Source of the DNA: Anaeromyxobacteraceae bacterium
Lineage (GTDB): Bacteria; Myxococcota; Myxococcia; Myxococcales; Anaeromyxobacteraceae
Reading direction: 5' to 3'
DNA: 64,000 nt
Assembly: GCA_047602405.1 (NCBI GenBank)
Contig: JASGHJ010000002.1
Span: forward strand, 2,048,001 to 2,112,000
Position 1 is the stretch's first letter. Each line of letters begins with the position of its first letter. The notes under the pieces are model-generated. The model ran no database searches. It was not told the origin of the DNA and was given only the letters and a program-made list of their open reading frames with translations. Position numbers and translations under genes: made by a program. Shown piece after piece: positions 6,105 to 58,783 of this stretch.

Positions 6105-7640
6105 TCAGGGCCGCAGCACCCAGACGCAGTAGGACTCGTCGCCGACGACGTCGGAGCGCTCGCAGCCGAGCTTCCGGAGCCGCGGCGCGAGCGCGGACGG
6201 CGGCGGCTGCGCGCGCACGGTCAGCACGTCGAGCACCACCACCGCCGGGCCCTCGCGGGCCACGAACGCCGCGGCCTCGCCCCACGCATCGGCCACGTCG
6301 TGGTTGCGCGCCTCGTCGAAGAGGATGTGCGAGCCCCAGCGGTGGCCGTGCGGGTACCACGCCCGCGCCGCGCCGAGGTGGCCGAGCACGTTCATCGCGG
6401 TGAAGTCGACGACCCCGACGAGCGGCAGGCCTTCGACGCCGGCGCGCCGGATGAGCTCCGCGGTCGCGCCGGCCGCCGAGAACTTCAGCCGGAGGTCCTC
6501 CCGCAGGGCGACGCCCGCCGCGGCCACGTGCACGGCCGCGAGCAGCGCGAACGCCGCGCGCGCGAGCCGGCCGGGCCGCACCGGCGACGCCCCGGCCACC
6601 CAGGCCGCGAACGAGAGGCAGAGCCAGAGGAAGCCCCAGTGGCGCAGGTAGCCGACGAACCGGAGCTGCCCGAACGCCAGCAGGCCCCCTGCCCCGACCG
6701 CGAGGAGCGCCGCGGCGGCCGGCGAGCGGCGGAGCGCGACGATCGCGCCGGCGAGGAGCGCCGCCCCGAGCGCGGCCACCGCGCCCTCCGGGAGCGCGGA
6801 GACGACGACGTTCGTCGACCAGAACCAGAGGCCCGGCTCCGGGAGCGGCAGCCAGGCGCGGACCACGGTGGCGAGCATGAACCCGGCCCGCGTCCCGTCC
6901 CACGCGAGCTCCCAGCCGCCCGCGTAGGCGCCGTCGGGCGGGGTGCGGATGGAGAGCGCGGTGAGGAGGACGCCGGCGGCGCCCAGGGCGAGCCCGGCCC
7001 ACGCCCGGCGCCGCGCCGGTGCCGGCGGCGGGCGGAGCACGAGCTCGCCGCCGAGCACCGCGAGAACGGCGACCACGAGGAAGAGCCCGTGCGGCGTGGT
7101 GTACGCGGCGGCCGCCGCGACGGCGCCGACGGTGAGGGGCCGCTCCCGGCGCCGGGTGAAGGCCCACGCGAGGACGGCGAGGCCGAGCACCGACAGGGCG
7201 TAGTTCCGCGCGAGGACGCCGTACTCGTACACCGGGAAGTAGCCGAGCACGCACAGGAGCCGCAGCCAGCGCGGGCCCGGCGCGAGCCGCAGCACGACGA
7301 ACGCGGAGGCGCCCGCGAGCGCGACCGACAGGGCCTGCATGGCCCAGGGCGCGCCCGGCCACCGGGTGAGCGGCCAGAGGAGGAGGTACCAGCTCGCCGG
7401 GTGGCCGCCGTAGCGGATGGCGTGGAAGAGCGCGAGCGGCGACGCGGCGTCGCGCGCCGCGAGCCAGGCGTCCATCTCGTCGCGCCAGAGCTCGTGGCGC
7501 GAGGCGCCGAGGCCCGCGAGGAGGAGCACCGCGGCCGCGCCCGCCAGCGCGAAGGCGAGCTCGCCGCGCCCGGCCGGCGCCGGCCCGGGCGGCGGAGGCG
7601 GCGCGGAGGGCGAACGCTCGGGGCGGGCGCGTCGGCTCAC
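6105..7640 (-). CDS. Polytopic membrane protein, GT-C (PMT/ArnT-like) glycosyltransferase
   Basis: Acidic motif after the first TM (HELWRDEMDAW...GHPASWYLLL), ARNYAL motif, about 11 hydrophobic segments. Confidence 0.6.
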   Translation of the reverse strand: MSRRARPERSPSAPPPPPGPAPAGRGELAFALAGAAAVLLLAGLGASRHELWRDEMDAWLAARDAASPLALFHAIRYGGHPASWYLLLWPLTRWPGAPWAMQALSVALAGASAFVVLRLAPGPRWLRLLCVLGYFPVYEYGVLARNYALSVLGLAVLAWAFTRRRERPLTVGAVAAAAAYTTPHGLFLVVAVLAVLGGELVLRPPPAPARRRAWAGLALGAAGVLLTALSIRTPPDGAYAGGWELAWDGTRAGFMLATVVRAWLPLPEPGLWFWSTNVVVSALPEGAVAALGAALLAGAIVALRRSPAAAALLAVGAGGLLAFGQLRFVGYLRHWGFLWLCLSFAAWVAGASPVRPGRLARAAFALLAAVHVAAAGVALREDLRLKFSAAGATAELIRRAGVEGLPLVGVVDFTAMNVLGHLGAARAWYPHGHRWGSHILFDEARNHDVADAWGEAAAFVAREGPAVVVLDVLTVRAQPPPSALAPRLRKLGCERSDVVGDESYCVWVLRP

Positions 7641-7741
7641 CCGGGCATGGTTCCACGGATGCCGCGGCAGGACCCAGCGAAAAGCGGACGGAAGGTCGAG
7701 CGGGGCGCGTGGAGCGCGATCGGACCGCGGGGCCGGAACGA

Positions 7742-7769
7742 CGAAGGGGGCCCGCGAGGGCCCCCTTCG
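7742..7769 (-). terminator. Hairpin terminator downstream of rplC
   Basis: Perfect 12-bp stem cgaagggggccc-gcga-gggcccccttcg, 34 nt after the rplC stop. Confidence 0.7.
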
Positions 7770-7802
7770 AGAGACGTCGGTGCGGCGTGCCGCGAAGGTC
7801 GA

Positions 7803-15404: not shown

Positions 15405-17051
15405 TCAGGGCGCCGGAGTCACGCCGCCGGGCAGCTGCCGCAGCACCTCGTAGGCCCGCGCGGCGCCCTCCATGTTGCCGTGCCGCGCCCGGAACGCGAC
15501 GAGGGTCCGCCAAGCGTTCGGATCCTGCGGCGCGAGGCGCGCGAACTGCTCGAGCGCCGCGTCGGCCTCGTCGAGGCGCCCGAGGTCCTCCGCCGCGAGC
15601 GCGAGGTTGCGCCAGGCGGAGCGCTTTCCGGGCTCGACCGCGAGCGCCTGCTGGAAGGCCGCGTAGGCCTCGTCGGACCGGCCCAGCTCCCGGGCGTTCA
15701 CCCCGAGGTTGTTCCAGTGCTTCGCCTCGGCCGGCTCGAGGGCCGCCGCCTGGCGCAGCGCGACGATGGCGTCCTCGCGCTGACCGCCGGCCCGGTAGCC
15801 CTCGGCGAGTGCCTCGAGGGCGATGGCGTTCGCCGGGTCGACCTCGAGCGCGGCGCGGAAGAGCGCCTCGTTCGAGCGCCAGTCGCCGACCCGGGCCCAT
15901 GCGACGCCCGCGTAGGCGAGCACGGCCACCGCGCCCACCACCCCGAGCACCTGCGACGCGCGCGGTGTCCGGACGAGGGCGTGGAGCCCCCAGACCACCG
16001 CGATGAAGAGGCCCACGCCGGGCAGGTAGGTGTAGCGCTCGCCGATCACCTGCGAGCCAACCTGCACGAGGCCGATCACCGGCACGAGCGTCCCGAGGAA
16101 CCAGGCGATCCCGACCGCGACCGCCGGCGTCCGCCGCGCCAGCCAGGCGACGGCGGCGAGGCCCGTGAGCACGGCGACGCCGAGGGCGACCTCCCACGCA
16201 GGCAGGGCGACCGGGTGGCGGTGGAAGATCGAGAGCCCGGACGGCCAGGCGTGGAGGAGCACGTAGCGCCCGTACCCCACGACCGCGGTCGCGACGCGGG
16301 CTCCGAGCGTGAACGACGCCTCCGCGACGGTGCCGCCCGCGAGCTGCGCCCGCATCGTCATCACGCTCGAGCCGACGGAGAGCGCGAGGAGCGGCAGCTT
16401 CTCGAGCGCGAGCGTCCGGAGCGGGGTCGTGTCGGTGCGGCGGAGTGGCCAGAGATCGAGGAGCAGGAGCAGGAAGGGCAGCGTGACCCACATCGGCTTC
16501 GCGAGGAGGCTCGCGGCCATGAGCGCGGCCACCGCCGCCAGCCGCCCCATCGACGGCCGCGCCGCGTGGCGCAGGTAGGCGAGCAGCGCGAGGAGCCCGA
16601 ACGCGGTCGAGAGCACGTCCTTTCGCTCCGCGACCCAGGCCACCGACTCGACGTGGAGCGGGTGCACCGCGAAGAGCGCCGCCACGAGCGCGCTCCGTCC
16701 GCGCGCGCCGGTCGCGCGGTCGAGGAAGCGGAACAGGAGGACGGTGCAGGCCGCGTGCAGGAGCGCGTTGACCGCGTGCGGGCCGGCCGCACCCGGCCCG
16801 AAGAGCGAGGCGTCCAGCATGTGCGACAGCCAGCTCAGCGGGTGCCAGTTGCTCGCATGGAAGGTCGTGAAGGCCCAGCGCACGCCCTCCCAGGTCAGGC
16901 CCGCCTGGACGGTCGAGTTCTCGAAGACGTAGCGGTTGTCGTCGAGGTGGATGTAGGGGTGCCCCAGCGTGCGCGCGTAGAGCGCGAGGGCGACCGCGGC
17001 GAGCCCCGCGGAGATCGCGGCGGCGGAGGGCTTCCTGGGTGTCGGATCCAT
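15405..17051 (-). CDS. TMTC-like GT-C membrane protein with C-terminal TPRs (copy 1)
   Basis: HLDDNRYV, NWHPLSWLSHMLD, HPLHVESVAWVAERKDVL, ERYTYLP, TPR WNNLG. Confidence 0.85.
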   Translation of the reverse strand: MDPTPRKPSAAAISAGLAAVALALYARTLGHPYIHLDDNRYVFENSTVQAGLTWEGVRWAFTTFHASNWHPLSWLSHMLDASLFGPGAAGPHAVNALLHAACTVLLFRFLDRATGARGRSALVAALFAVHPLHVESVAWVAERKDVLSTAFGLLALLAYLRHAARPSMGRLAAVAALMAASLLAKPMWVTLPFLLLLLDLWPLRRTDTTPLRTLALEKLPLLALSVGSSVMTMRAQLAGGTVAEASFTLGARVATAVVGYGRYVLLHAWPSGLSIFHRHPVALPAWEVALGVAVLTGLAAVAWLARRTPAVAVGIAWFLGTLVPVIGLVQVGSQVIGERYTYLPGVGLFIAVVWGLHALVRTPRASQVLGVVGAVAVLAYAGVAWARVGDWRSNEALFRAALEVDPANAIALEALAEGYRAGGQREDAIVALRQAAALEPAEAKHWNNLGVNARELGRSDEAYAAFQQALAVEPGKRSAWRNLALAAEDLGRLDEADAALEQFARLAPQDPNAWRTLVAFRARHGNMEGAARAYEVLRQLPGGVTPAP

Positions 17052-19002: not shown

Positions 19003-19896
19003 TCAGCCCCGCCGCGAGAACTCGGCGTGGAACGCGTCGAGCTGTGCGGCGAGGTCGAGGGGCTTCGCCCGGAGCAACGCCGCCGCCTTCTCGACGACGA
19101 GCCCGCCCTTGAGCGGCCGCGGCGCGGGGAGCTTCACGTCGGCGGTCCTCACCGGGATGATCTCGCCCGTTAGGCCGAACCGCGCGGCGACCCGCTTCGC
19201 GAACTCCACCCGGTCGACGACGGTGGAGCCGCAGGTGTGGAGGACGCCCTTGAAGTCGTGCTCGAGGAGGAGCTCGCAGGTCATCTCGGCGCCGTTGCGC
19301 GCGAGCGTCGTGGAGACGTGCTGGTCGAAGAACGCCTTCACCGGCTCGCCCTTCCGGAGCTTCTCGACGATCTGGGTCGCGAACGTGGACTTCGCGCCGG
19401 GGCGGCCGGAGTACACGACCGCCACGCGGGCCACCGCGCAGTCCGGCGCGAGCACGAGGGCCGCCTCCTCGCCCGCGCGCTTCGAGCGTGCGTAGGCGCC
19501 GCGCGGGTTCGGGACGTCCTCCTCGCGGTAAGGGCCCCGCTCCCCGTCGAACACGTAGTCGGTCGAGATCGCGACGAGGCGCGCGCCGAGCTTGCGGCAC
19601 GCGCGGGCGACCTGCTCCGTGCCGCCGACGTTCACGGCCCACGCGGTCACGGGGTCGCGCTCGCAGCCGTCCACGTCGGTGGCCGCGCCCGCGTGGAGCA
19701 CGGCCTGGGCGCCGAAGGCGAGGAGCGCGGCCTCCAGGCCGCGCCCGTCGCCGAGGTCGGCGTCGGCGTAGCGGTGCGCGCCGGGCGGGAGGCGGTCCGG
19801 GCCCCGGCCGACGGCCAGGACCTCGTGCTTCGCCTCGAGGAGCGCCACGGCCTCGCCGCCGAGGAGCCCGTTCGCGCCGGTGATCGCGACCTTCAT
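19003..19896 (-). CDS. rfbD: dTDP-4-dehydrorhamnose reductase (RmlD/RfbD family)
   Basis: MKVAITGANGLLG, TDVDGCE, ISTDYVFDG, PYREED, YARSK, APRP. Confidence 0.85.
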   Translation of the reverse strand: MKVAITGANGLLGGEAVALLEAKHEVLAVGRGPDRLPPGAHRYADADLGDGRGLEAALLAFGAQAVLHAGAATDVDGCERDPVTAWAVNVGGTEQVARACRKLGARLVAISTDYVFDGERGPYREEDVPNPRGAYARSKRAGEEAALVLAPDCAVARVAVVYSGRPGAKSTFATQIVEKLRKGEPVKAFFDQHVSTTLARNGAEMTCELLLEHDFKGVLHTCGSTVVDRVEFAKRVAARFGLTGEIIPVRTADVKLPAPRPLKGGLVVEKAAALLRAKPLDLAAQLDAFHAEFSRRG

Positions 19897-25438: not shown

Positions 25439-25451
25439 GATGCGCGCGCCG

Positions 25452-29329: not shown

Positions 29330-29337
29330 GGGGCCCC

Positions 29338-31305: not shown

Positions 31306-31306
31306 C

Positions 31307-33109: not shown

Positions 33110-33161
33110 TACCCCGGTCGCAGGGCCCGTTTCAACGGTATGAATTTACTCGGCTTCGAGT

Positions 33162-34929: not shown

Positions 34930-34952
34930 GGGCTTCACTCCGGGTGGGTATC

Positions 34953-38578: not shown

Positions 38579-38603
38579 TCCACCCTCCGTGTAGCGCGAA
38601 GCC

Positions 38604-38636
38604 AAAAAAAGGGGGCCGCCGAGGCGGCCCCCCTTC
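38604..38636 (-). terminator. Rho-independent terminator after omcS
   Basis: Minus strand gggggccgcc-tc-ggcggccccc followed by TTTTTTT. Confidence 0.85.
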
Positions 38637-38657
38637 TAACACACCATCAGGCCAGGC

Positions 38658-39971: not shown

Positions 39972-40046
39972 CTTGCTTCCCCTTGGTTGGTACTGCGGTC
40001 CCCTGCTTGCTTCGTTACTGCTGCTTGCTGCGCCTGTGATTCCCCC

Positions 40047-40070
40047 CGCCGCCCGTCCCACCGGGCGGCG
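40047..40070 (-). promoter_or_regulatory. Stem-loop in the intergenic leader of omcS
   Basis: cgccgcccg-tcccac-cgggcggcg; no U-tract on the coding strand. Confidence 0.5.
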
Positions 40071-40087
40071 TTGCTGCCTGAACCTGG

Positions 40088-45311: not shown

Positions 45312-48300
45312 TTACAGGTGGCAGCTCCTACACGCGGCCGCCGCCTTGTTCGCGGTGATGTCCACGTTCCCGTTCGCGTGGAGCGCCGGGTTGGTGAGCC
45401 GGACGTTCCCGCCTGCCACCGTGCCCGCCGCGTCGGAGTGGCAGAGCGAGCAGTCGTTCTGCGTCCCGAGCGACCCGTGCGCCCCGGAGTGCCACGCTCC
45501 GTTGAACGTCGGCGCGCCGTGGCAGCTCGAGCAGGTGATCGTCTCGCCCGTCCAGATCGCCGTAGCCCCCTTGCCCGTGTAGTCGAGGGTGTGGGTCACG
45601 TCGTCGGGCGTCGTCCACTGGTAGGTGCCCTGGTAGTTCCCGTGGCAGTACGTCGACGCGCAGCTCGCGGTGCCGCGGGTCCAGGAGGCCGCGACCGGCC
45701 CCTGGAGCGTCCAGGTCTTCGGGAACGACACGTCCAGCACCCCGTCCATGTGCCCGATGTTCGTGAGCGGCGGCGTGACGTGGCAGGCGTCGCACGTGTA
45801 GCCCGCGGTCACCGCCCCGGCGGTCACATGCTTCTGGTGCGCGCCGACGCCGAGCGTGGCCGTCGAGGTGTCGCCGTTCACCGCGGTGGGCGGCGCCGAC
45901 TGGACGTACTTCGGGTCCGCCGTGCCGGTGGCCGTGCGGCTCGAGTCGCCGTGACAGGAGGCGCAGGTGAGGTCGATGATGTCGAGCTTGCCGTTGATGT
46001 GGGTCGCGGCGTTCACCGACGACGACGTGTAGCCGGTGTGGCAGCGGCCGCAGTCCGGCGTCGCCGGGTGCGCCGGCCCGGGCGGCGGCGCCCCGTGGCA
46101 GCTGTTGCAGGCGGTCTGGCCCGCGCTCACCTGCGTCCACTTCGGCGTGGTCGCGACGCCGCCGGCGGCGAGCGTCGCGCCGTGGCAGTAGGTCGAGGCG
46201 CAGGTCGCGGCGTTGCGGTCCCACGCGGGCGCCGCGCCGTCGGTCTTCACGAAGTCGCTGAAGGCCAACTGGCGCACGCCGTCGGCGTGGAGGTTGGTCG
46301 AGGGCACCGGGTGGCAGTCGCTGCAGGCGAAGGCCCGGCCGATGTTCCCGGCGTAGACGTGCTTCTGGTGCGCGCCGACCGCGAGCGTGGTGGTCGCGCT
46401 CTCGTCGCCGGTGCCGGTCGGCGGCGCGGCCCTCTGGAGGTCGGTGCCGGCGCGGTTCGAATCGCCGTGGCAGGACGCGCAGCTGAACGCGAGGAGGTCG
46501 AGGTTGCCGTCCGCGTGCTTCGCCTTCGAGTACTGCAGCCCGGCGTCGGCCGGGTGGCAGCCGCCGCAGGCCGCGCGCTGCGGGTGCGGCGAAGGTGGCG
46601 GGGCGGCGTGGCAGCTGCCGCAGGAGGCCTCGGACGCGCCGCCGGTCCAGGCCGGCGTCGTGTGCGTGCCGCCGGGGAGCGTCGCGCCGTGGCAGTACGA
46701 GCTCGAGCAGCTCGTGCCGTTCCAGGTGGTCGTCTTCCCGTTGATGGTCTTGAACGCGGTCGCGACGGTGCCGTTCGCGTGCGAGAGGTCGGCCGGGACC
46801 GCGTGGCACGCGTCGCAGGCGACGCCGTCGGTCAGGGTCGAGCCGTTCACGTGCGCGGCGTGCGCGCCGACGGCGCGGGTCGAGGTCGCGGTCTCGTTCT
46901 GCGTGCCCTGCGGCGGCGCGGCCTTCTTGAGGTCGGCCGCGGTGTAGCTCGTCACCCGCGTGCCGTGGCAGAAAGTGCAGTTCTGCGCCCAGGTCGCCGA
47001 GCCGCCGAGGTGGCAGCCGGTGCAGGAGACGGCGACCACCCCGCCGAGGAGGTCGGCGCCGTGGCAGCCCTTGCAGCCGCCGAGATCCTGGTTCGCCTGG
47101 AGGCCGTGGTTCGTCGGGAGCACCCAGTCGGTCGGGTGGTACTTCGTGACGTCGACCGTGCCGTTCACGTGCTTGCCGCCCGCGAGGTCGATCGCGCCGC
47201 CGGCGGTGACCGTGTTCGCGTGGCAGGTGCGGCAGGCCGCGAGCGTCGGGTGCGGCGCCGGGGGCGGCGCGCCGTGGCAGGTGCCGCAGGCGGCCTCGGC
47301 CGCGCCGCCGGTCCAGGCCGGGGCGGTCTTCGTGCCGCCGGCGTTCAGCGTGGCGCCGTGGCAGTAGGTCGACGCGCAGGTCTGCGTGGCCGTGTACGAG
47401 GGCGCCGCGCCGTCCTTCGTGGCGAGCGCGCCCCAGGTGAGCTTCCTGACGCCGTCGACGTGCGAGAGGTCGGTCGGGACCGCGTGGCACTCGGTGCACG
47501 CGACGCCGCTCGACATCGTGCCGCCGGAGAGGTGGCTCTGGTGCGCGCCGACGGCGCGGGTGGAGGTCGCGAGCTCGCCCTGCGTGCCGACCGGCGGGGC
47601 GGGCTTGTTCGCCGAGCGGTTCGCGTCGCCGTGGCAGAAGGTGCAGTTCGACTGCCAAGTCGCGCCGTGGCACGTCGCGCAGGAGATGCCGGTGCCGCCG
47701 CCGGCGAGGTCGGCGCCGTGGCAGGACTTGCAGGAGGCGAGGTCGGCGTTCGCCGCGTAGCCGTGCACGGTGGGCGTCGCCCAGTTCGCCGGGTGGTAGT
47801 CGTTCACCTCCACGGTGCCGTTCACGTGCATGCCGTTCGCGACCTTGATGGTCACGTCGTCGTTCTCCACCGTGCCGGGGTGGCAGATGTGGCAGGCGGT
47901 GGACTTCGCGGTGTGCGGGGCCGTGGTGGGTGGGGCGCCGTGGCAGGTGCCGCAGTCGGCCTGCGTCCCGTCGACCTTCGTCCACAGCGGCTGCTGGAGC
48001 GTGCCCCCGGAGAGCGTCTGGCCGTGGCAGTAGACGCTGCAGGTCGCGTTCGTGGTGTCGAACGTGGGCGTGCCCTTCGCGCCGGCGAGGCCGGAGAAGG
48101 TCACCTTCACGACGCCGTCGGAGTGGAGCTGGTCGGCCGGGACCACGTGGCACGCGCTGCACTCGAACGCCTTCGACAGCGGGCCGGCGGCGAGGTGCGC
48201 CTGGTGCGCGCCGACCGCGCGGTCGGTGGTGGCGGTCTCGCCGTCGAGGCCGATGGGCGGCGCGGACTTGAGGAGGTCGGTCGTGACGCGGGTCGAGTCG

Positions 48301-48941
48301 CCGTGGCAGGTGGCGCACCCGCCGGTGAGGTCGACCTGGCCGTTCATGTGCTTCTCGGTCACCGCCGACGGCGCCGAGCCGAGCGTGAGCGAGCCGGCGT
48401 GGCACCTCTGGCAGTCGGTGCGGGCCGGGTGCGGCGCCTTCGGGGGCACACCGTGGCAGCTGCCGCAGGAGGCCTGCGGCGGGGAGACGACGTTCCACTT
48501 CGGGGCCGGGTTCGTGCCGTCGGCGAGCGTCGCGCCGTGGCAGTAGACGGTGCAGGTGGCGGTCTCGCGGTTCCAGCTCGCGGTGAAGCCGGCCGGCGCG
48601 GCGAGGGGGCCGAAGCGCACCGCGACCTTGCCGTCGATGTGGGCGAGCGGGTTCGCGGCGTCGGGCGCCGGGTGGCACGCCGCGCAGTCAAGCTTGGGCG
48701 AGAGGTGCGCGGGGCCGAGGACGTGCGCGGAGTGCGCGCCGACCGAGAGCGCGGTCGGGCTCGACTCGCCCTTCACGGACCGCGGCGGGGCCCCGCCGTC
48801 GCTCTCGACGCCACCGTGGCACCGGGTGCACTTCGACTCGGTGGCGCCCTCGGCGCCGACGACGGTGCGGGACTGGCAGCCGGCCCCCGCGACGAGCGCG
48901 GCAGCGGTGATCACCACGAGGTGGAGCGAGCGCGACGTCAT
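45312..48941 (-). CDS. Giant repetitive multiheme cytochrome c lipoprotein (35 putative hemes; CxxxxCH/CxxCH type)
   Basis: Lipobox-like AGAGC; 29 CX2CH, 2 CX3CH and 4 CX4CH counted; six modules each containing VGAHxxH. Confidence 0.92.
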   Translation of the reverse strand: MTSRSLHLVVITAAALVAGAGCQSRTVVGAEGATESKCTRCHGGVESDGGAPPRSVKGESSPTALSVGAHSAHVLGPAHLSPKLDCAACHPAPDAANPLAHIDGKVAVRFGPLAAPAGFTASWNRETATCTVYCHGATLADGTNPAPKWNVVSPPQASCGSCHGVPPKAPHPARTDCQRCHAGSLTLGSAPSAVTEKHMNGQVDLTGGCATCHGDSTRVTTDLLKSAPPIGLDGETATTDRAVGAHQAHLAAGPLSKAFECSACHVVPADQLHSDGVVKVTFSGLAGAKGTPTFDTTNATCSVYCHGQTLSGGTLQQPLWTKVDGTQADCGTCHGAPPTTAPHTAKSTACHICHPGTVENDDVTIKVANGMHVNGTVEVNDYHPANWATPTVHGYAANADLASCKSCHGADLAGGGTGISCATCHGATWQSNCTFCHGDANRSANKPAPPVGTQGELATSTRAVGAHQSHLSGGTMSSGVACTECHAVPTDLSHVDGVRKLTWGALATKDGAAPSYTATQTCASTYCHGATLNAGGTKTAPAWTGGAAEAACGTCHGAPPPAPHPTLAACRTCHANTVTAGGAIDLAGGKHVNGTVDVTKYHPTDWVLPTNHGLQANQDLGGCKGCHGADLLGGVVAVSCTGCHLGGSATWAQNCTFCHGTRVTSYTAADLKKAAPPQGTQNETATSTRAVGAHAAHVNGSTLTDGVACDACHAVPADLSHANGTVATAFKTINGKTTTWNGTSCSSSYCHGATLPGGTHTTPAWTGGASEASCGSCHAAPPPSPHPQRAACGGCHPADAGLQYSKAKHADGNLDLLAFSCASCHGDSNRAGTDLQRAAPPTGTGDESATTTLAVGAHQKHVYAGNIGRAFACSDCHPVPSTNLHADGVRQLAFSDFVKTDGAAPAWDRNAATCASTYCHGATLAAGGVATTPKWTQVSAGQTACNSCHGAPPPGPAHPATPDCGRCHTGYTSSSVNAATHINGKLDIIDLTCASCHGDSSRTATGTADPKYVQSAPPTAVNGDTSTATLGVGAHQKHVTAGAVTAGYTCDACHVTPPLTNIGHMDGVLDVSFPKTWTLQGPVAASWTRGTASCASTYCHGNYQGTYQWTTPDDVTHTLDYTGKGATAIWTGETITCSSCHGAPTFNGAWHSGAHGSLGTQNDCSLCHSDAAGTVAGGNVRLTNPALHANGNVDITANKAAAACRSCHL

Positions 48942-51280: not shown

Positions 51281-52990
51281 ATGGCACCTTGCCGTTGGCT
51301 CAAGCTCGCCTTTCCGAAGGCCCTCGCTTCGGGGTGCGCCCTAGCCGCGTTTGTCGCGGCGACGGCATGGACGTGGCGCAGGCTTGGTAGTTTGGTGATC
51401 GACGGCGGCCGGGAACTCGAGGTTCCAAGGCGACTCGCCGAAGGAGCGCACCTCTACAGTGAGGTACGCTGGTACTGGGGTCCGCTGGCTCCCTGGCTGA
51501 ACGCACTGCTCTACCGGACCTTCGGGGTCCACGCGGACACTCTCATGTGGGCCGGGATCGTGACTGCCGGCTTGTGCTGTGCCGCGATCTACCTCCTCGT
51601 AGAACGCTTCTCGACCGCATGGGTCGCAGCCGCGGCGTCCCTGGCCTTCACTTTCGGGTTTGCCTTTGCAGTGCGCAACCCGTACGCGATTTTCAACTTC
51701 GTGATGCCTTTCAACTTCTCCGCGACCTACGGCATCACCCTAGCAATCTGGAGTCTCTATTTTGTCATTCTGCACGCGGAGAATGGACGCTCAGCGACGC
51801 TCGGATTGTCCGCCGTGTTGGCAGGCCTCGCTGCGCTCACCAAGGCAGAGGTCGGTATTGCTGTAACGGCAGCGCATGTCGCATTCCTCGTGACCACGTT
51901 GCCTCGGCCCGGCGGCGCCCGCGTCCTCTCCTGGGGAAGCGGACTGTTCGTGGCCGGGGGCGGCTACATCTTGGCTTACGTCGAGAGCCGGGGCGCCGTC
52001 TGGTCAAGCCTCCGCGAACTCGCCAATCCGGCGTCACGATTCTACGTCACGAACACCATGGGGCTCGATGACCTGATGGGAGGACCGATCAGACTCGCCG
52101 CATCATCGGTTGGCTTCGCGCTATTGGCCTTCCTGATCTGGCGAACGGGCGAGGTCAGCACGCCCAATTCGAGAGCCTGGAAGTTCCTCTGGGGATCTTG
52201 CGCGTGCAGTGTATCGTTCGCGCTCGCGGCCCTGAGCTCGAAGGTCGCAGCGATACAAGCCCTGCCGATGGCCCTCTTTGTCGGGATCGTGCATCAGGCC
52301 ATGGGCCGAAACGCGAACACCTCTCGATCGCGGTACATGCCAGTTCTCGCGCTAGCCTTGGCTGCCCTTGCTCGGATCCCGCTAAAGGTTGGGCCCGACC
52401 ACTACGGCTTCTATTTGCTCGTGCCGATGCTCGTCGCCGTGCCGGTAACGGCAGAAGCATTTGCGACTTCGAACACGCGGGTTCGTGCGCCCGCGCGCGC
52501 GGCCATCGGCGTCTTCATGATCGGACTCGCATTGAGCGGCATCGCTGCATCCAGATCATATTTGTCCGACCGAACAATGGATGTCCGCGCCCGCCGCGCA
52601 CACATCAGAGTGGCAACTTCGTGTGCGGAGGCGCAGTGGCTGCCCTGGCTCTCCGCTCTCCCGACAACTACCCGTGTGGCGGCGATCCCCGAAGGTGCGG
52701 GCCTCGTCTTCGCCGCAGGGCTGACCCCCACAACCGACGGCTTCACCTCCTACCTGCCTATGGAACTCTTCGAGCCCGAGCTCGACGCGAACCTCGCCGC
52801 CACCTGGGATGCATCACCTCCCGACGTGATCCTCTACAGGGCTCAGAATCAGGCACCGGTCTTCGGCTTCCTCGGCTTTGGCCACGACTACGCGTTGGAG
52901 GCGGGAGAGTGGATTATGCGCAACTATGCCCAGCGGGGTGACCTTGTCGATGGAATCGCGCTTTTCCTGCCAAGACACCCCGCACACTGA
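51281..52990 (+). CDS. Lower-GC polytopic membrane protein, ArnT/PMT-like GT-C candidate
   Basis: IDGGREL..P.RL..G..LY...YWGPL after TM1; LTKAE; many TMs. Sampled lines are 50-60% GC against about 77% in the next gene. Confidence 0.62.
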   Translation: MAPCRWLKLAFPKALASGCALAAFVAATAWTWRRLGSLVIDGGRELEVPRRLAEGAHLYSEVRWYWGPLAPWLNALLYRTFGVHADTLMWAGIVTAGLCCAAIYLLVERFSTAWVAAAASLAFTFGFAFAVRNPYAIFNFVMPFNFSATYGITLAIWSLYFVILHAENGRSATLGLSAVLAGLAALTKAEVGIAVTAAHVAFLVTTLPRPGGARVLSWGSGLFVAGGGYILAYVESRGAVWSSLRELANPASRFYVTNTMGLDDLMGGPIRLAASSVGFALLAFLIWRTGEVSTPNSRAWKFLWGSCACSVSFALAALSSKVAAIQALPMALFVGIVHQAMGRNANTSRSRYMPVLALALAALARIPLKVGPDHYGFYLLVPMLVAVPVTAEAFATSNTRVRAPARAAIGVFMIGLALSGIAASRSYLSDRTMDVRARRAHIRVATSCAEAQWLPWLSALPTTTRVAAIPEGAGLVFAAGLTPTTDGFTSYLPMELFEPELDANLAATWDASPPDVILYRAQNQAPVFGFLGFGHDYALEAGEWIMRNYAQRGDLVDGIALFLPRHPAH

Positions 52991-53023: not shown

Positions 53024-54724
53024 TTGCCCGGCCCCTCCAGAGCAGCCTCGCCCCGGGCCCGGCCCGCGACGGCCCTGGCCACGCCGGCGATCGCCGCCGG
53101 CCTCGCCGCCGTGGCGTTCGCGCTGTTCGCCCGCACCGGCGCGCACGGCTTCCTCCTCTGGGACGACCAGGCCTACGTCACTGGCAACGCGCGGGTCCTC
53201 GGCGGGCTCTCGCGCGAGAGCGCCGCCTGGGCGCTCACCACGTTCCACCACGCGAACTGGCACCCGCTCACCTGGCTCTCGTTCCTGCTCGACGCCTCGC
53301 TGTCCGGCGCCGCGCCGGGCGCGATGCACCTCGAGAACGCCGCGCTCCACGCCGCGAACGCGGCGCTCGTCTTTCTCGCGCTCCTCCGGCTCACCGGCGC
53401 GCGCTGGCGGAGCGCCCTCGTCGCGGCCCTCTTCGCGGTGCACCCGACCCGCGTCGAGGCGGTGGCCTGGGTCTCGGAGCGGAAGGAGCTCCTCTCGACG
53501 CTCTTCGGGCTCCTCGCGATCCTCGCCCACGCGGCGTACGCCCGCCGGCCCTCGGCGTGGCGGTACGCGCTCGTCGTCGCCGCGGCGGCCGCGAGCCTCG
53601 CCTCGAAGGCGATGCTCGTCACCCTGCCCTTCCTCCTCCTCGGCCTCGATGCGTGGCCGCTCGACCGGCTCCGCGCGGGAGGCTGGCGGCGGGCGCTCCT
53701 CGAGAAGGTGCCGCTCCTCGCGCTATCGGCCGGCTGCGCCGCGCTCACCTACGCCGCGCAGGCCCGGGGCGGAGGGATCCCCGCGGTGGCCCTCCCGTTC
53801 GGCGAGCGGCTCGCCGGCGCGGTCGTGGCGCCGGTCCGGTACGCGGGGCTCCTCGCGTGGCCGTCCGGGCTGTCGGCGCTCTACCCGCTGCGCGACGGCG
53901 GGCCTCCGCCCTGGCAGGTCGCGGGCGCCGCGGTGCTCGTCGCCGGCGCGCTCGCGGCCGCGTTCGCGCTGCGGGGCCGCGCGCCCTGGTTCGCGGTGGG
54001 GCTGTGCGGGTTCCTCGGCACGCTCGTCCCGGTCGTGGGGCTCGTGCAGGTGGGCGCGCAGGCGCTCGCCGACCGCTACACGTACTTCCCGGCCCTGGGC
54101 CTCTTCCTCGTGGTGGCGTGGGGCGCCGCCGCGCTCGCGCGCGGCCCGGCGCGCGGCGCGGTGGTCGCCGCGGCGGTGGCGGCCCTCGTCGCGCTCTCCG
54201 CGGTCACCTGGCAGCGGATCGCGCTGTGGGGCGACGAGGTGGCGCTGTTCCAGGATGCCCTCGCCGCGACCGGCGAGAACGGTCGCGCGAGCACGCTCCT
54301 CGCCCTCGCGCTGCTCCACCGGGGCCGCGCCGGGGAGGCGCTCGCGCCGGCGGCGGACGGGACGCGGCTCGCGCCGGGCGACGCGATGGGCTGGCTCGCG
54401 CTCGGGCTCGCCGCGCGCGACACCGGCCGGGACGAGGAGGCCCTCCGCGGGCTCCGCGAGGCGGTGAAGCGTGCCCCCGACCTGCGGCAGGCGTGGGCGG
54501 CGCTCGCGGGGGCGCTGTCGCAGGCCGGCCGCAGCGCCGAGGCCGTCGAGGCCTTCCGCGCCTACCTCGCGCTCGCGCCCCGCGACGCCGACGCCTGGGC
54601 GCTCCTCGTCTGGGAGCTCGCGCGGCTCGAGCGCTACGCCGAGGCACGCGAGGCGTACGAGCGGCTCCAGGCGATCGACGCCGCGGCCGCGGCGCGCCTG
54701 CGGCGCGAGCTCGGCGGTCGGTAG
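53024..54724 (+). CDS. TMTC-like GT-C membrane protein with TPRs (copy 5)
   Basis: LWDDQAYV, NWHPLTWLS, HPTRVEAVAWVSERKE, ADRYTYFP. Confidence 0.85.
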   Translation: MPGPSRAASPRARPATALATPAIAAGLAAVAFALFARTGAHGFLLWDDQAYVTGNARVLGGLSRESAAWALTTFHHANWHPLTWLSFLLDASLSGAAPGAMHLENAALHAANAALVFLALLRLTGARWRSALVAALFAVHPTRVEAVAWVSERKELLSTLFGLLAILAHAAYARRPSAWRYALVVAAAAASLASKAMLVTLPFLLLGLDAWPLDRLRAGGWRRALLEKVPLLALSAGCAALTYAAQARGGGIPAVALPFGERLAGAVVAPVRYAGLLAWPSGLSALYPLRDGGPPPWQVAGAAVLVAGALAAAFALRGRAPWFAVGLCGFLGTLVPVVGLVQVGAQALADRYTYFPALGLFLVVAWGAAALARGPARGAVVAAAVAALVALSAVTWQRIALWGDEVALFQDALAATGENGRASTLLALALLHRGRAGEALAPAADGTRLAPGDAMGWLALGLAARDTGRDEEALRGLREAVKRAPDLRQAWAALAGALSQAGRSAEAVEAFRAYLALAPRDADAWALLVWELARLERYAEAREAYERLQAIDAAAAARLRRELGGR

Positions 54725-54815: not shown

Positions 54816-55553
54816 CTACCCGGCCTTGTGCGCCGGGGCGGCGCCGTGGCCGCCGTGGCCGTGGCCGCCGACGAGCTTCTCGACCGGCACGCCCTCCATG
54901 CGGGCGAGCTCCACCGGGTGCTCGTGCAGCATGCGCTCGCGGGAGATCTTGCCCGTGAAGATGCCGGTGTCGAACGGGAAGACGTCCGGGTTCAGGTGCG
55001 CGTTGAAGATGTGCCAGATGGTGATGACGAAGAACGCCATCAGGCCCTCGTTCGAGTGCGCCATCTTCGCGGCCGGGATGATCTGGCCGGGGATGATCAT
55101 CGAGGCCGTCACCGGGAAGAACAGGACGAGGCCGGTGACCACCATGATCACGTTGCCGGCGACGAGGCCCCAGTACTCGAACTTCTGCTTGTAGTCGTAA
55201 CGGTCGTACAGCGGCTGCTGATCCGTCACGCCCATGTAGTACTTGAGCTGGGTGAACGCGTCGACGAAGTCCTGCCGCGTCGGCACCATCGACCAGCGCG
55301 CCTTCTTCTGGATCATCAGCAGGAAGGTGTTGCCGAAGTGGACCACCGTCGAGGCGGCGAGCACGAGCCCGCAGATCCGGTGGACCCACCGCATGGTGTC
55401 GAAGCCGAAGAACAGGTGGACGGTCGTCTGGGCCCACCCGGCCGCGTAGAACTTCTGCGGCAGGCCGGTGATGCACAGGAGCACGAAGGTCACCATGGTG
55501 ACCATGTGCTCGATGCGCTGGCTGAGGTTGAAGCGGACGACGTACGTGCTCAT
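54816..55553 (-). CDS. Diheme cytochrome b (FdnI/HydC-like; CbcB or CbcL b-domain-like)
   Basis: RFNLSQRIEH, ITGLPQKF, WVHR, YDYKQKFEYW, AHSNE, IWHIFNAH, EHPVE; His-rich tail. Confidence 0.88.
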   Translation of the reverse strand: MSTYVVRFNLSQRIEHMVTMVTFVLLCITGLPQKFYAAGWAQTTVHLFFGFDTMRWVHRICGLVLAASTVVHFGNTFLLMIQKKARWSMVPTRQDFVDAFTQLKYYMGVTDQQPLYDRYDYKQKFEYWGLVAGNVIMVVTGLVLFFPVTASMIIPGQIIPAAKMAHSNEGLMAFFVITIWHIFNAHLNPDVFPFDTGIFTGKISRERMLHEHPVELARMEGVPVEKLVGGHGHGGHGAAPAHKAG

Positions 55554-56593
55554 CGATTCACCACGGTGCGCCAGAGGTGCAGCGCGATCTGGAGGGAGAG
55601 CCCGCCCACCATGAACGGGATCATGAACTTGTAGAAGAGGAGGACCACCCAGACGATCGGCGCCTTCTCCGGCGACGGCTCGTAGTGGGAGAGCCACGCC
55701 CTCGGGAAGGTCGCCGTCGCGCCCTCGTGGCAGCGCGAGCAGGTCTTCTGCAGGTTCGCCTGGATGACGGTCGAGGTCGGGTCGTTCGTCTTCTGGATGT
55801 CGTGGATGCCGTGGCAGTCGGTGCAGCCGGCCACGATGCGCTGCGCCGGGCCCTTCTTCTGGCCCTTCGACAGCTGGGCGCCCATGCCGTGGAAGTCGGC
55901 GAGGTACGTCTTCACGACGTTCGGCGAGATGCCGTACTTGTTCATCAGCTCCACGTTGGAGTGGCAGCGGCCGCACATCTCGGCGGTGCGGAGCGAGAGG
56001 GCGCCGCCGTCGCGCGGGTCGGTCGCCTCGTGCGGGCGGTGGCAGTCGGTGCAGACCGGCACGTCCTGGTTCGTGTCGACCGCGCGGCCGTGGACCGACT
56101 GCTTGTAGGTCGCCGCCTGCGTCGGGTGGCAGCCCATGCACTTCGCGGCCACCTTCGTGCGCGACTCCTTCGCGGAGACGATGTCGTGCGCACCGTGGCA
56201 CTCGCCGCACGCCGGCGTCTTCTGCGAGCCGGCCGCGATCTTCGCGAAGTGGATGCCGTCGAGGAGCTTCGTGTACTTGTCGAGGTGGCAGCCCTTGCAG
56301 TTCTCGAAGTACGCGCGCGACGCCTCGTGGCGGGTCTTGTACGGGAGCTCGCCGGTGGCGTGGTCCGCCTTCTTCCCGACGTGGCAGTCCGTGCACTTGT
56401 TGTTCTCGCCGTGCACCGACTTGGCGAAGACCTCCTTGTTCACGTACAGGCCGAGCTTCTCGCCCGACGGGAGGTCGAAGGTCTGGTTGGGATCCTCGTG
56501 ACAGCCGAGGCACTCCTCCGACTCGGCCGGGATGCCGGCGCGGGCCGGCAAGGCGACCGTCAGACAGAGGAGCGGAAGGATGAATCTCGTCAT
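55550..56593 (-). CDS. Nonaheme cytochrome c with a C-terminal membrane anchor (CbcL c-domain/CbcA-like)
   Basis: Signal peptide; 9 CxxCH counted; C-terminal TM; ATGA overlap with the cytochrome b gene. Confidence 0.9.
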   Translation of the reverse strand: MTRFILPLLCLTVALPARAGIPAESEECLGCHEDPNQTFDLPSGEKLGLYVNKEVFAKSVHGENNKCTDCHVGKKADHATGELPYKTRHEASRAYFENCKGCHLDKYTKLLDGIHFAKIAAGSQKTPACGECHGAHDIVSAKESRTKVAAKCMGCHPTQAATYKQSVHGRAVDTNQDVPVCTDCHRPHEATDPRDGGALSLRTAEMCGRCHSNVELMNKYGISPNVVKTYLADFHGMGAQLSKGQKKGPAQRIVAGCTDCHGIHDIQKTNDPTSTVIQANLQKTCSRCHEGATATFPRAWLSHYEPSPEKAPIVWVVLLFYKFMIPFMVGGLSLQIALHLWRTVVNR

Positions 56594-56827
56594 GGGCAAC
56601 CCTCGCGGGATCACGTTCCTCGATCCCTGCACAAATCGGACGCGGCGTTTCCTACCAGCGAGCGGCCTCTGGACGCAATGGCATAACGCCCCGTAAGCCG
56701 CTGAAAATTCACGAACATTCGTCGGTGGGACCACCCGGATTTGCGCGCGCAGAAAAAGCGTTTGGCGCCCAACTCCCCCGACCCCTGCGCAGGTTTGCAC
56801 CTTTGCCCGAGCGGGACCGGGGGAGCA

Positions 56828-56841
56828 TTGACGTGCGTCAG
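56828..56841. promoter_or_regulatory. FNR/CRP-like site upstream of the cytochrome c/b pair
   Basis: TTGAC-GTGC-GTCAG; only a weak -10 at class II spacing. Confidence 0.4.
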
Positions 56842-57007
56842 TTCTCGGCGCGACACGGCGCCGCGCTCGCGCGCTCGAACGCACAGCGGGTCCGCGTCAT
56901 GCCCGCCCGCCCGGCCGCGCCTCCTGCGGCGCTTCGCCGCGATCGGCGGCGGACGGGCGACGCTCCGCGGGGGCGACCTCGGTGGCGCGCGAAAGACGTG
57001 CGGGCCC

Positions 57008-58783
57008 TCAGCGTGCCCGCGGCGCCCAGCCCTCGGCCTCGAGCCGCGCGAGCCGGACCTCGACCGGCTCCCGGGTCGGCGCCGCCGCGAGCCGCGCGCG
57101 CGCCTCGGCGGCGCGCCCCGACCTGAGCAGCACGATCGCGAGCCCGTCCTCGAGGAGCGCGTCTCCCGGCGATCGCTCGAGCGCCGCGCGGAGGCCCCCC
57201 TCCGCTGCGCGCGGGTCCCCCGCCTCCAGCCGCGCCATCGCGAGCCAGAACGCCGGCGGGGCGACGCGCGGATACGCGCTGGCGACGGGCGCGAGCACGT
57301 CCCCTGCCAGGGCCGGTTCGCCCGCGCGGAGCAGGATGAGCCCGAGCTCCTGCCCGAACTCGGGCGACGGGCGTAGGGCCTCGGCCTCGCGGTGGGCAAC
57401 GACCGCCTCGGGGGCGCGGCGGCGCTGGGCGAGCCAGAGCGCCCGCGCCCTGAGGCGCGTCTCGGGAGACGTCGCGTCCCTGGCCACCCGCTCCAGCACC
57501 TCGTAGGCCTCTCGCACCCGGCCGGCCTCGCCGAGCTGGTCGGAGTACATCCAGGCCGCGAAGAGCGCGTCGGGGGCCTCGGCCGCCGCGCGCGCCCAGA
57601 GCGCGAGGTCGGAGGCGTAGGCCCGCGAGCGCTGGAACGTCCAGGTCCCTGCCCCGAGCACGAGCGCCGCGGCCGCGACCGCGGCGAGCCGCTCCCCGGC
57701 GCGGCCTCCGAGCCGCGCGAGCCCCCAGCCCCAGAGCGCCGTGGCGCCCGGGAGCGCGAGGTACTGGAGGTGATTGGCGACCGGCGCGATCTGCCGGTAG
57801 GCCATGTCGACGAGCCCCAGCACGGGGAGGACGAGGAGCAGGTGCCACCCGAGGGCGAGCCGCAGCGGCCCGAGCGCGCGCGCCCGCCCGGACACGAGCC
57901 CGCCGATCACCGCTACCCCGCCGGCCGCGCGCACCAGGTACGCGACCGCCTCCCGGGGCGGAGCCTCCGGGTACGTCACCGCGACGCCCCAGGGGAAGAA
58001 GGCGCGCTGCACGTAGTCACCGAGCGCGTACCCCGCGTCGGCGAGGCGCGCCAGCGCCCCGCGAGGCACCACCGTCGCCGTGCTCATCGCGTTGCCGTGC
58101 TGGAAGAGCAGCGTCCCCGCGCCCGCGACGAGCGAGAGCACCGCGAACGGCGCGAGCCTGCGCAGCGTCCTCTGGTCCAGGGGTGCGCCGAGCGCCCACT
58201 CCGCTCCGAGGACCGCGAGGGGGAACGCCACCACCGAGGTCTTCGCGAGGAGCGCCAGGGCGAAGAGCCCGAGCGACGCGGCGCGCAGCGTCCGGCCCCG
58301 CTCCCCGCCGTCGCGCGCGTGCAGCCACGCGAGCGCGGAGCCGAAGAGGAGCACCCCCGAGAGCACGTTCTTGAGCTCGGACACCCACGCGACGGACTCG
58401 ACCGCCACGGGGTGGACCGCGAAGAGCGCGGCGCCCACCCACGCGCCGGGCACCCTCGCGCGCAGGAGCACGCGCCACAGCAGCAAGGCCGCCGCGGCGT
58501 CCAGGGCCACGTTGATCGCATGGTACCCGGCCGCGGAGTCCCCGAAGACTCGCCACTCGAGCCAGAGGACCGACCAGGTGAGCGGCCAGTAGTCCCACGC
58601 GTCGGCGGTGAACCAGATCCGCCAGAGCGGGCCGCGCACGACGCTCTCGGGCCCGAGGAGCGCGTGATCGTCGTAGACGAAGCCGCCCGCGAGGGCCGGC
58701 GCGAAGGCCGCGAACACGAGCAGCACCAGCGCGGCGCCGAGCGCGAGCTCGGGCGGGGCGGCGCGTGTCGCGGGGCGGGGCAC
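57008..58783 (-). CDS. TMTC-like GT-C membrane protein with TPRs (copy 6)
   Basis: FVYDDHAL, DYWPLTW, HPVAVESVAWVSELKNVL, LAKT, TPR-like C-terminus. Confidence 0.83.
   Translation of the reverse strand: MPRPATRAAPPELALGAALVLLVFAAFAPALAGGFVYDDHALLGPESVVRGPLWRIWFTADAWDYWPLTWSVLWLEWRVFGDSAAGYHAINVALDAAAALLLWRVLLRARVPGAWVGAALFAVHPVAVESVAWVSELKNVLSGVLLFGSALAWLHARDGGERGRTLRAASLGLFALALLAKTSVVAFPLAVLGAEWALGAPLDQRTLRRLAPFAVLSLVAGAGTLLFQHGNAMSTATVVPRGALARLADAGYALGDYVQRAFFPWGVAVTYPEAPPREAVAYLVRAAGGVAVIGGLVSGRARALGPLRLALGWHLLLVLPVLGLVDMAYRQIAPVANHLQYLALPGATALWGWGLARLGGRAGERLAAVAAAALVLGAGTWTFQRSRAYASDLALWARAAAEAPDALFAAWMYSDQLGEAGRVREAYEVLERVARDATSPETRLRARALWLAQRRRAPEAVVAHREAEALRPSPEFGQELGLILLRAGEPALAGDVLAPVASAYPRVAPPAFWLAMARLEAGDPRAAEGGLRAALERSPGDALLEDGLAIVLLRSGRAAEARARLAAAPTREPVEVRLARLEAEGWAPRAR

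Follow-up and report, generated by a model that had tools for sequence, protein, structure and literature searches.

Gene content of the window

The window analyzed here is a 64,000-bp stretch of DNA (G000:C2:2048001-2112000; G+C content 68–78%) from a 6.16-Mb genome in two contigs, which is 98% complete and is referred to below as G000. The closest OmcS sequences to that of the window, 84–85% identical, come from Anaeromyxobacter sp., and the genome is therefore called Anaeromyxobacter-like. The window contains the gene cluster of the nanowire cytochrome OmcS and a gene for a 35-heme cytochrome, surrounded by an island of glycosylation genes. Six of these encode membrane glycosyltransferases of the GT-C type with tetratricopeptide repeats (TPRs), T1–T6, which resemble the animal TMTC proteins. 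The association of TMTC-like genes with nanowire loci is real, non-random and partly conserved.

Genes in the window were called with a codon model, and 34 proteins were scanned against Pfam, plus NCBIfam. The features that the analysis builds on are as follows, where G100 is the genome of a genetically tractable model organism.

6105..7640, minus strand: GT-C-like membrane protein without a family assignment, set apart from the other genes, with typA on one side and an L3-like gene on the other; its start codon is uncertain
15405..17051, minus strand: T1, TMTC-like GT-C protein with TPRs, WHP clade (Pfam TPR, motifs, AlphaFold model)
17116..18996, plus strand: T2, TMTC-like GT-C protein with TPRs, the sole one above the PF08409 cut-off; DD, YRP, KE, DW and ERxxY all kept
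19003..19896, minus strand: RmlD-like nucleotide-sugar reductase (PF04321, E 7e-59; below the TIGR01214 cut-off, 205 vs 224 bits)
19931..21763, minus strand: T3, TMTC-like GT-C protein with TPRs, WHP clade (Pfam TPR, motifs)
21822..23135, plus strand: GT87-like GT-C protein (PF09594, E 1e-9)
23147..25438, plus strand: YfhO-like GT-C protein (PF09586, E 2e-7)
25440..26393, plus strand: methyltransferase dependent on S-adenosylmethionine (SAM) (Pfam); a homologue, 39% identical, follows the GT2a orthologue near omcS in G100
26383..27153, minus strand: GT2a, soluble DPM1-type GT2 (PF00535), likely a polyprenyl-phosphate-sugar synthase
27171..41053, minus strand: OmcS nanowire gene cluster (Pfam, comparison with relatives)
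38658..39971, minus strand: OmcS, hexaheme nanowire subunit and candidate client (6EF8 match, E 3e-133; 18% Ser+Thr)
41382..42377, minus strand: GT2b, a GT2 of the GtrB/PgfS/ArnC type that contains hydrophobic segments; it closes a run that starts with the 35-heme gene and continues with T4 and the PIG-V-like gene
42374..43492, minus strand: PIG-V-like (Mannosyl_trans2) GT-C protein (PF04188, E 1e-8)
43489..45264, minus strand: T4, TMTC-like GT-C protein with TPRs, on the same strand as the 35-heme gene and 47 bp downstream of it
45312..48941, minus strand: 35-heme CxxxxCH/CxxCH cytochrome of 1209 amino acids (aa), candidate client (PF09698, TIGR01904; 19% Ser+Thr)
51281..52990, plus strand: PMT_2-type GT-C protein (above the Pfam cut-off)
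53024..54724, plus strand: T5, TMTC-like GT-C protein with TPRs, WHP clade (Pfam TPR, motifs)
54816..56593, minus strand: paired genes for a cytochrome b and a 9-heme cytochrome c, conserved at the edge of the island
57008..58783, minus strand: T6, TMTC-like GT-C protein with TPRs, divergent clade

A preliminary description of this DNA had named six GT-C proteins with TPRs, five other GT-C-like proteins, two GT2 enzymes, an RmlD gene and a methyltransferase around the omcS cluster and the 35-heme gene. All six open reading frames of the first group were found, with their DD motif, an FAVHP motif and TPR matches. Pfam or NCBIfam recovered both GT2 genes, the RmlD-like gene and the methyltransferase, and these genes do surround the omcS cluster and the 35-heme gene. 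Four of the other GT-C-like proteins (21822, 23147, 42374 and 51281) pass a Pfam cut-off, but the protein at 6105 has no Pfam or NCBIfam match at E≤1e-3/1e-4. It displays seven hydrophobic segments and a WRDE (DE) motif, and its nearest Atlas cluster having a family is GT39/PMT_2, which is a lead only; its homologues adjoin TMTC-like genes in G008, G082 and G104.

NCBIfam names none of the GT-C domains of the window, and its matches for GT2a (AglJ, PpgS and dolichyl-phosphate hexose transferase) and for GT2b (PgfS and ArnC) all lie below their cut-offs, although they agree in type with lipid-phosphate glycosyltransferases. No GT4 enzyme, Wzx-type exporter, or GtrA-type or other flippase was found among the 34 window proteins scanned with Pfam. 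The G+C content at third codon positions of the PMT_2 gene at 51281 is 0.74, as compared to 0.94–0.99 in 16 other genes measured, and this low value identifies the gene as a recent acquisition.

The OmcS cluster comprises genes for an NHL protein, 16- and 26-heme cytochromes, a peptidyl-prolyl isomerase, two lipoprotein-like proteins, proteins of approximately 727 and 469 aa, OmcS, and a second propeller-like gene. We take "osc" to be the name of this cluster; a literature search for it found no paper. OmcS carries six CxxCH motifs and matches 6EF8 over its full length. The NHL, 16-heme, 26-heme, isomerase, two lipoprotein-like and 727-aa genes match G100 counterparts in the same order, and the 727-aa protein is presumably a beta-barrel, a label drawn from PMC13712944. 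In the 1209-aa protein we counted 29 CxxCH and six Cx3-4CH motifs, the 35 hemes given in the preliminary description. Its view of both cytochromes as Ser/Thr-rich also held, since OmcS and the 35-heme protein rank at the 98.6th and 99th percentiles for Ser+Thr among 3,459 proteins, that is, in the top 1–2%. The two proteins contain 5 and 10 N-x-S/T sequons, respectively.

Four +1 frameshifts at window positions 32268, 35984, 37380 and 37882, missed in the preliminary description, break three genes of the omcS cluster. Because all four are insertions at or beside GATC and the corresponding genes of the relative G010 are whole, they are probably sequencing errors (long-read, methylated motif), and decay of the cluster is disfavoured. 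In or near the omcS clusters of other genomes lies a gene for an approximately 1000-aa multi-pass membrane protein with a spermidine-synthase domain (L128:12058-15111 and L034:7452-10430; Pfam-checked in G100 and G010). Genes of similar size are present in G007, G018 and G023, and none was seen in the window.

Motifs, fold and relationships of the TMTC-like proteins

Proteins T1–T6 are 548–626 aa in length and 28–57% identical to each other. They share a hydrophobic N-terminal domain with a DD motif at residue 36–47, the FAVHP motif and C-terminal TPRs, the latter with matches in all six and weakest in T6 (TPR_19 only, 27 bits vs a cut-off of 25). A second motif reads HPxxxE[S/A]V in five of them. 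The T4 version (43489), HPVHSEAV, fits the HP-x-x-(V/S)-E-(S/A)-V pattern proposed earlier for these proteins.

The proteins were compared with the human TMTC motifs of PMC7801869. The M1 DD motif is kept in all six. The M2 motif SHKSYRP, a modelled mannose contact, is not kept and is reduced to YRP in T2 and T4, WHP in T1, T3 and T5, and YWP in T6. At M4 (phosphate/metal, KE(T/Q)), the Lys is present in six proteins, the Glu in two and the DW in one, T2 keeping all of these. The M7 arginine is found in five proteins as (E/D)RxxY; T6 is without it and has NHLQY, as do all five members of its clade found near omcS. Across 96 aligned homologues, both DD and the M4 Lys are present in 94, and the replacements at M2, M4 and M7 are, as judged from the alignment, clade-wide and not decay.

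The cut-off of PF08409 (DUF1736) is passed by T2 (40 bits vs 27) and by no other gene of the genome. T2 has at least 120 homologues, and nearly all of those listed carry this domain. On its sequence, T2 can be filed with the DUF1736 proteins, and the other five are TMTC-like homologues; with only one of the six above the TMTC Pfam cut-off, the group is best called TMTC-like. Searches of profiles and structures for TMTC/DUF1736, PMT_2, YfhO and Mannosyl_trans2, as advised in the preliminary description, thus placed T2 and the YfhO, Mannosyl_trans2 and PMT_2 genes, but left T1 and T3–T6 below PF08409.

T1 alone was modelled with AlphaFold (predicted local distance difference test, pLDDT, 73; predicted template modelling score, pTM, 0.79), and T2–T6 were placed in the fold by alignment. 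The first Foldseek match of the T1 model was ArnT and the second was Pmt4 (best E 4.6e-3, template modelling score approximately 0.44–0.50, none reaching E≤1e-3). All 34 of the 34 best matches listed were ArnT, Pmt, oligosaccharyltransferase, ALG, DPY19, AftB or glycosylphosphatidylinositol-transamidase chains. The N-terminal domain of T1 is thus predicted to adopt the GT-C membrane fold. A crude hydropathy scan of T1–T6 detected 6–8 segments vs the eleven helices of TMTC, and the T1 model shows more long helices. With the T2 sequence, the best 60 of 103 matches to solved structures were to TPRs only.

A FastTree phylogeny of 96 rows, in which four long branches are unsure, separates T1–T6 into four lineages (T1/T3/T5, T2, T4 and T6). 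The T1/T3/T5 clade includes three dispersed paralogues from the same genome, and its sister clade is made up of omcS-adjacent genes from Geomonas and Citrifermentans. The Atlas neighbours of T1 are mostly from Verrucomicrobiota, Acidobacteriota and other phyla.

Linkage of TMTC-like genes to nanowire loci

A profile built from T1–T6 identified 11 TMTC-like paralogues in the 6.16-Mb genome, six within a 43-kb part of the window and five dispersed. Six of the 11 are located within 15 kb of a gene with at least three heme motifs, as compared to 13% of a 1,500-gene random sample, although the six form one cluster and do not represent independent events. The clustering of six such genes in the window is not due to chance.

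One of the dispersed paralogues closes a type II secretion-like operon (L145:4720-6648 on contig C1; label from sequence motifs). Two others, at C1:2222364 and C2:2524928, each adjoin a copy of a similar open reading frame of approximately 270–296 aa, which we take to resemble a REP-associated transposase. The pilA locus on contig C1 (L144:4365-11203) displays, divergent from pilA, genes for an AglB-like oligosaccharyltransferase, a GT-C protein with PMT_2 and TPRs, a GT2 and a methyltransferase. The PMT_2+TPR protein belongs to a non-TMTC family that the TMTC-like profile missed. From its gene content this is likely a pilin glycosylation cassette with an archaeal-type domain. As pilA has its own separate cassette, the island in the window is not needed to explain pilin glycosylation.

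We searched 37 genomes of the genus and found omcS in 20 of them. After merging of split rows, 130 TMTC-like rows gave 120 genes, or 131 with the 11 from G000, and 42 omcS rows gave 38. Within 35 kb of omcS we found 46 of the 131 genes vs 2.4 expected, and 13 of the 20 genomes had a TMTC-like gene within this distance (about 2 expected; 11 of 20 within 10 kb). The 2.4 assumes uniform placement, and because the sampled genomes are kin, the expected counts given here and below overstate significance. Of the seven omcS-bearing genomes without linkage, five are fragmented or incomplete.

In gene maps of nine relatives, glycosylation genes and giant cytochromes ring the omcS cluster in changing combinations. 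In G000, G007 and G022, TMTC-like genes come directly after a giant cytochrome gene. The genomes G021, G022, G024, G025 and G026 each have an OmcE-like tetraheme gene with a TMTC-like gene behind it, either adjacent or separated by a single membrane-protein gene (PDB-checked for four). These five cases came to light through inspection of the surroundings of omcS or TMTC-like genes and therefore form a biased sample. Next to an omcS-like gene in G007 lies a gene for a 1273-aa protein with ten cadherin-like/Big_9 domains (L002:1748-5569), and G015 and G021 have genes of similar size. By analogy to the animal TMTCs, which act on cadherins, the G007 protein is a candidate client.

At the same positions as in the window, the relative G010 (88–93% DNA identity) is without 41293–45312, which holds GT2b, the PIG-V-like gene and T4, and without 51187–53003, which holds the PMT_2 gene; its island has two membrane genes absent from the window. 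The GT2a orthologue is single-copy in 27 of the 78 genomes searched; in 14 of the 27 a TMTC-like gene is found no more than 3 kb away, and in 21 no more than 25 kb away. The island is thus a patchwork, with a conserved core of GT2a and TMTC-like genes, sometimes with the methyltransferase, and other cassettes that are exchangeable. One fixed pathway was rejected, because the island content differs from that of the nearest relative and the six TMTC-like genes come from four lineages.

The analysis was extended to OmcS loci from all genomes, of which 23 of 70 carry a TMTC-like gene in their 10-kb flanks, those of Geomonas, Citrifermentans, a Geobacterales bin and four Nitrospirota among them; many of these flanks are truncated, and about 8 loci repeat genomes of the genus. 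An even draw of 51 genomes from the class of Geomonas, Desulfuromonadia, contained TMTC-like genes in 32. In 13 of 26 Desulfuromonadia genomes, a TMTC-like gene was located within 25 kb of the best omcE-like match, defined as a short match at E≤4e-21, vs 1.4 expected. Genome G062, with four TMTC-like genes within 20 kb, falls outside the 51-genome sample and was excluded from this count. Linkage to omcS in the same class amounted to only 3 of 12 (1.6 expected). The preliminary description had held that paralogues scattered equally densely, with no conserved linkage to cytochrome loci, would speak against its reading. This null is rejected for the window and the genus, and linkage also holds for omcE in Desulfuromonadia, but the null is not rejected for omcS in that class, and many paralogues are scattered.

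In G100, OmcE and OmcS are letter-for-letter identical to the 7TFS and 6EF8 chains, and the genome has three TMTC-like genes in all, at the pilA, omcE and omcS loci. All three keep the DD motif and an Arg at M7. The gene at the pilus locus (L126:14996-16744) directly follows pilA-N/pilA-C, and the genes behind it encode ABC-transporter parts, an order also seen behind pilA in a myxobacterium (L146). At omcE, the TMTC-like gene is the third after omcE, between two GT2 genes, and is the first GT-C after omcE; its subfamily was found in 9 of 53 genomes, and in eight of the nine it lies 3–23 kb downstream of omcE. At omcS, the TMTC-like gene is the fourth from omcS, and after it come a GT2 gene, whose product shares 69% identity with GT2a, and the methyltransferase homologue. 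By gene order, the omcS-linked gene corresponds to GSU2508 of Geobacter sulfurreducens ("TPR domain protein"), beside the omcS sensor kinase gene, and the pilA-C-linked gene corresponds to the first of the GSU1498-1508 "anchoring polysaccharide" cluster (PMC3495685). The pilA locus tag and further references are found in PMC12954529 and bioRxiv 10.1101/2020.01.09.901157. Two genes before the pilus-assembly genes, the pilus locus of G100 has a homologue of the TMEM260-like protein O-mannosyltransferases (L126:4142-5911; PF11028, E 6e-53).

Further genes were observed at the margins of the island. Beside hemA, window 15093–15383 encodes a 96-aa membrane protein of no Pfam family, with tandem-pair homologues near the omcS cluster in G008, G018, G022, G023 and G025. 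A conserved flanking module at 58862–62822 contains two GcvH-domain membrane proteins, a triheme cytochrome, NrfD and a 4Fe-4S protein. A lone gene near typA (7803–8513), which we take to encode a ribosomal protein L3-like product, is conserved in position in relatives.

Proposed function, alternatives and known systems

We consider the chances evenly balanced that the patchwork island O-glycosylates the secreted, Ser/Thr-rich local cytochromes, OmcS and the 35-heme protein, in the periplasm, as suggested by gene content and sequence. The genes, fold class, motifs and linkage are what the analysis shows, and we infer the steps from GT-C and DPM1/GtrB biochemistry. GT2a and GT2b would load sugars from nucleotide sugars onto undecaprenyl phosphate at the cytoplasmic face, where the sugar would also be modified by the RmlD-like enzyme and the methyltransferase, and a putative flippase would carry the lipid-sugar across the membrane. 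The TMTC-like enzymes, whose DD loop and TPR arm would face outward like those of animal TMTCs, would use the TPRs to bind the exported protein and would transfer a first sugar to its Ser/Thr residues. The GT87-, PIG-V-, YfhO- and PMT_2-like enzymes would extend or decorate the glycan. As cassettes come and go, the sugar coat would vary between strains.

The interpretation given in the preliminary description is partly supported, as the linkage survived in the genus and for omcE in Desulfuromonadia and the cytochromes are Ser/Thr-rich, and the scheme retains its roles of donor loading, initiation and extension. Its single ordered pathway does not stand, given the four lineages and the cassette differences to G010, nor is the family nanowire-specific. 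The methyltransferase had also been proposed to cap the glycan in the periplasm, which we do not uphold: no N-terminal signal peptide was found in its sequence (25440..26393) and SAM is cytoplasmic, and the enzyme would therefore act before flipping of the sugar.

Several observations weigh against the cytochromes as clients. The proposal is weaker in its specificity, as five of the 11 own paralogues and 13 of 19 sampled loci have no nearby cytochrome or pilin gene, and pilin loci are also partners. The five dispersed paralogues are 21–417 kb from the nearest multiheme gene, and three of them belong to the same clade as T1, T3 and T5. The 19 stretches centred on paralogues away from omcS comprised, besides the 13, three OmcE-like clusters, two pilin or pilin-ABC loci and one glycosylation block by typA. 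TMTC-like genes are present in all 17 genus genomes without an omcS match, in seven of nine other Myxococcota, and in Verrucomicrobiota, Acidobacteriota and Planctomycetota clusters; G092 holds 20 TMTC-like genes, found in arrays, and has no omcS or omcE match. G015 and G021, both complete and in single contigs, are true negatives for omcS linkage, and the weak omcS linkage in Desulfuromonadia and the kinship of the sampled genomes point the same way. In G000 itself, several other large cytochromes equal the two candidates in Ser/Thr-richness, and three other large Ser/Thr-rich or giant cytochrome genes have no TMTC-like neighbour. OmcE, the nanowire reported as extensively glycosylated, was not found in the G000 genome with two queries, and it was rejected as the local client. 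The paper on the OmcE structure is said to contrast OmcE with a much less glycosylated OmcS.

It is possible, if rather unlikely, that the enzymes are instead general cell-surface protein O-glycosyltransferases acting in trans on adhesins, cadherin-like repeats, lipoproteins, pili or secretion substrates, and that they gather here because the stretch from hemA to the cytochrome b/c genes is a hypervariable envelope island, and not because they serve the cytochromes. The 13 stretches without a cytochrome or pilin gene fit this explanation, as do the paralogues after pilA-C in G100, after pilA and an ABC-transporter block in a myxobacterium and after the type II secretion-like operon in G000. 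In G007, the same island encodes a Wzx-type flippase and a DegT aminotransferase besides the protein with ten cadherin-like domains, and cassettes turn over between close relatives. However, same-strand, immediate adjacency to omcE recurs in two phyla, with the omcE-linked subfamily of G100 downstream of omcE in eight of nine genomes, and all three G100 paralogues are located at filament loci. The five-repeat Big_9 protein of G000 is approximately 70 kb from the nearest paralogue.

That the acceptors are lipids or lipid-linked glycans, with ArnT- or GtrB/GtrC-like decoration of lipid A, lipopolysaccharide or a cytochrome-anchoring exopolysaccharide, appears improbable. ArnT, the best structural match of T1, is a lipid modifier and thus speaks against protein clients, but it is also the top structural homologue of human TMTCs (PMC7801869), so that this match does not discriminate. 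GT2b resembles PgfS and ArnC and forms, together with the PIG-V-like GT-C, a cassette that can be removed as a unit, and the gene that follows pilA-C corresponds by order to the first of the published "extracellular anchoring polysaccharide" cluster (PMC3495685). Against this, a periplasmic TPR arm would be a protein-binding module, like that of the animal TMTCs with their protein clients (PMC7801869). The lipid-acceptor reading may hold for the TPR-less GT-C proteins. It is highly improbable that most of the six do not initiate glycosylation but instead assist cytochrome export as TPR chaperones with little or no catalytic activity, or extend glycans after an oligosaccharyltransferase, as the losses at M4 and DW and of the M7 Arg in T6, the AglB-like gene beside pilA and the sequons of OmcS and the 35-heme protein might suggest, since DD and the M4 Lys are kept in 94 of 96 homologues with clade-wide replacements and not decay, and GT2a, of the donor-making type, is beside TMTC-like genes in 14 of 27 genomes.

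O-glycosylation of the local cytochromes may be one case of a wider principle, which we put forward tentatively: bacterial TMTC-like proteins could be initiating O-glycosyltransferases of extracellular filaments, with approximately one paralogue per filament or giant cytochrome, selected by its TPRs and encoded beside the client gene (pilA, omcE, omcS or giant CxxxxCH), and with swappable GT2/GT-C cassettes varying the nanowire coat. If true, coat variation would tune insulation, bundling or phage recognition, and the system would be a prokaryotic counterpart of cadherin O-mannosylation. It would explain an insulating or anti-bundling nanowire coat and offer an engineering handle, and the small bacterial TMTC proteins would be models for structure and mechanism. 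For each filament type, the gene order of G100 singles out one candidate enzyme, three in all, in a model organism. Glycosylation clusters beside omcE are already in print (PMC13712944), and this adjacency limits the surprise of the finding; the linkage counts and the named candidate enzymes in a genetically tractable model are new.

Two questions meet at this locus, the function of the bacterial TMTC homologues and the enzyme behind the OmcE density read as glycan, which the passages on OmcE in PMC13712944 and PMC9473688 do not name. Animal TMTC1-4 (CAZy GT105; PF08409 and TPRs) are protein O-mannosyltransferases of the endoplasmic reticulum that act on cadherins, and full-length prokaryotic homologues were noted as uncharacterised in 2021 (PMC7801869). 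A literature search, with coverage largely outside subscription journals, found no later characterisation of bacterial TMTC, GT105 or DUF1736 proteins. The window proteins share with the animal TMTCs an N-terminal GT-C domain, DD after the first helix, the M4 Lys, an ERxxY-like motif, C-terminal TPRs and the LFAVHP motif, as in human TMTC3 (PMC7801869). Unlike the animal proteins, five of the six miss the PF08409 cut-off, SHKSYRP is cut to YRP, WHP or YWP, DW is present in one, the TPR tails are shorter, and the setting is a bacterial island that also encodes donor-making GT2s.

In freshwater Geobacter and Geomonas, omcE is followed by 15–70 glycosylation genes (GT2, GT4, GT39, methyltransferases and TPR proteins), and OmcE displays extra density, likely glycans, where such a cluster follows it, but none in D. 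soudanensis, whose cluster type is without those genes (PMC13712944). According to PMC9473688, OmcE is extensively glycosylated, surface glycosylation differs between OmcS and OmcE, and OmcZ has none. The island resembles the omcE-type clusters in that GT2s, GT39-like enzymes, methyltransferases and TPR proteins flank a cytochrome-nanowire cluster and vary between genomes. It differs from them in having omcS and a 35-heme cytochrome, in belonging to Myxococcota, and in that no omcE was found and no GT4 or Wzx-type exporter is among the 34 proteins scanned. The passages of PMC13712944 on these clusters neither name TMTC-like enzymes nor assign the initiating transferase.

The ArnC/ArnT and GtrB/GtrC cassettes also combine a membrane-tailed GT2 with a GT-C that are gained and lost as a unit, like GT2b, the PIG-V-like gene and T4. 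In contrast to the island, those cassettes act on lipid A or O-antigen and are without TPRs, and no GtrA-type flippase is found among the scanned window genes. Actinobacterial and fungal PMTs (GT39) carry out O-mannosylation with a polyprenyl-phosphate sugar made by Ppm1/Dpm1 and a GT-C that acts on Ser/Thr of exported proteins. The island shares with the PMT systems the pairing of a GT2 donor enzyme with a GT-C, and Pmt4 is the second Foldseek match of T1. However, PMTs are without the TPR arm and are usually encoded by one housekeeping gene, whereas the genome of the window has many paralogues beside particular filament genes.

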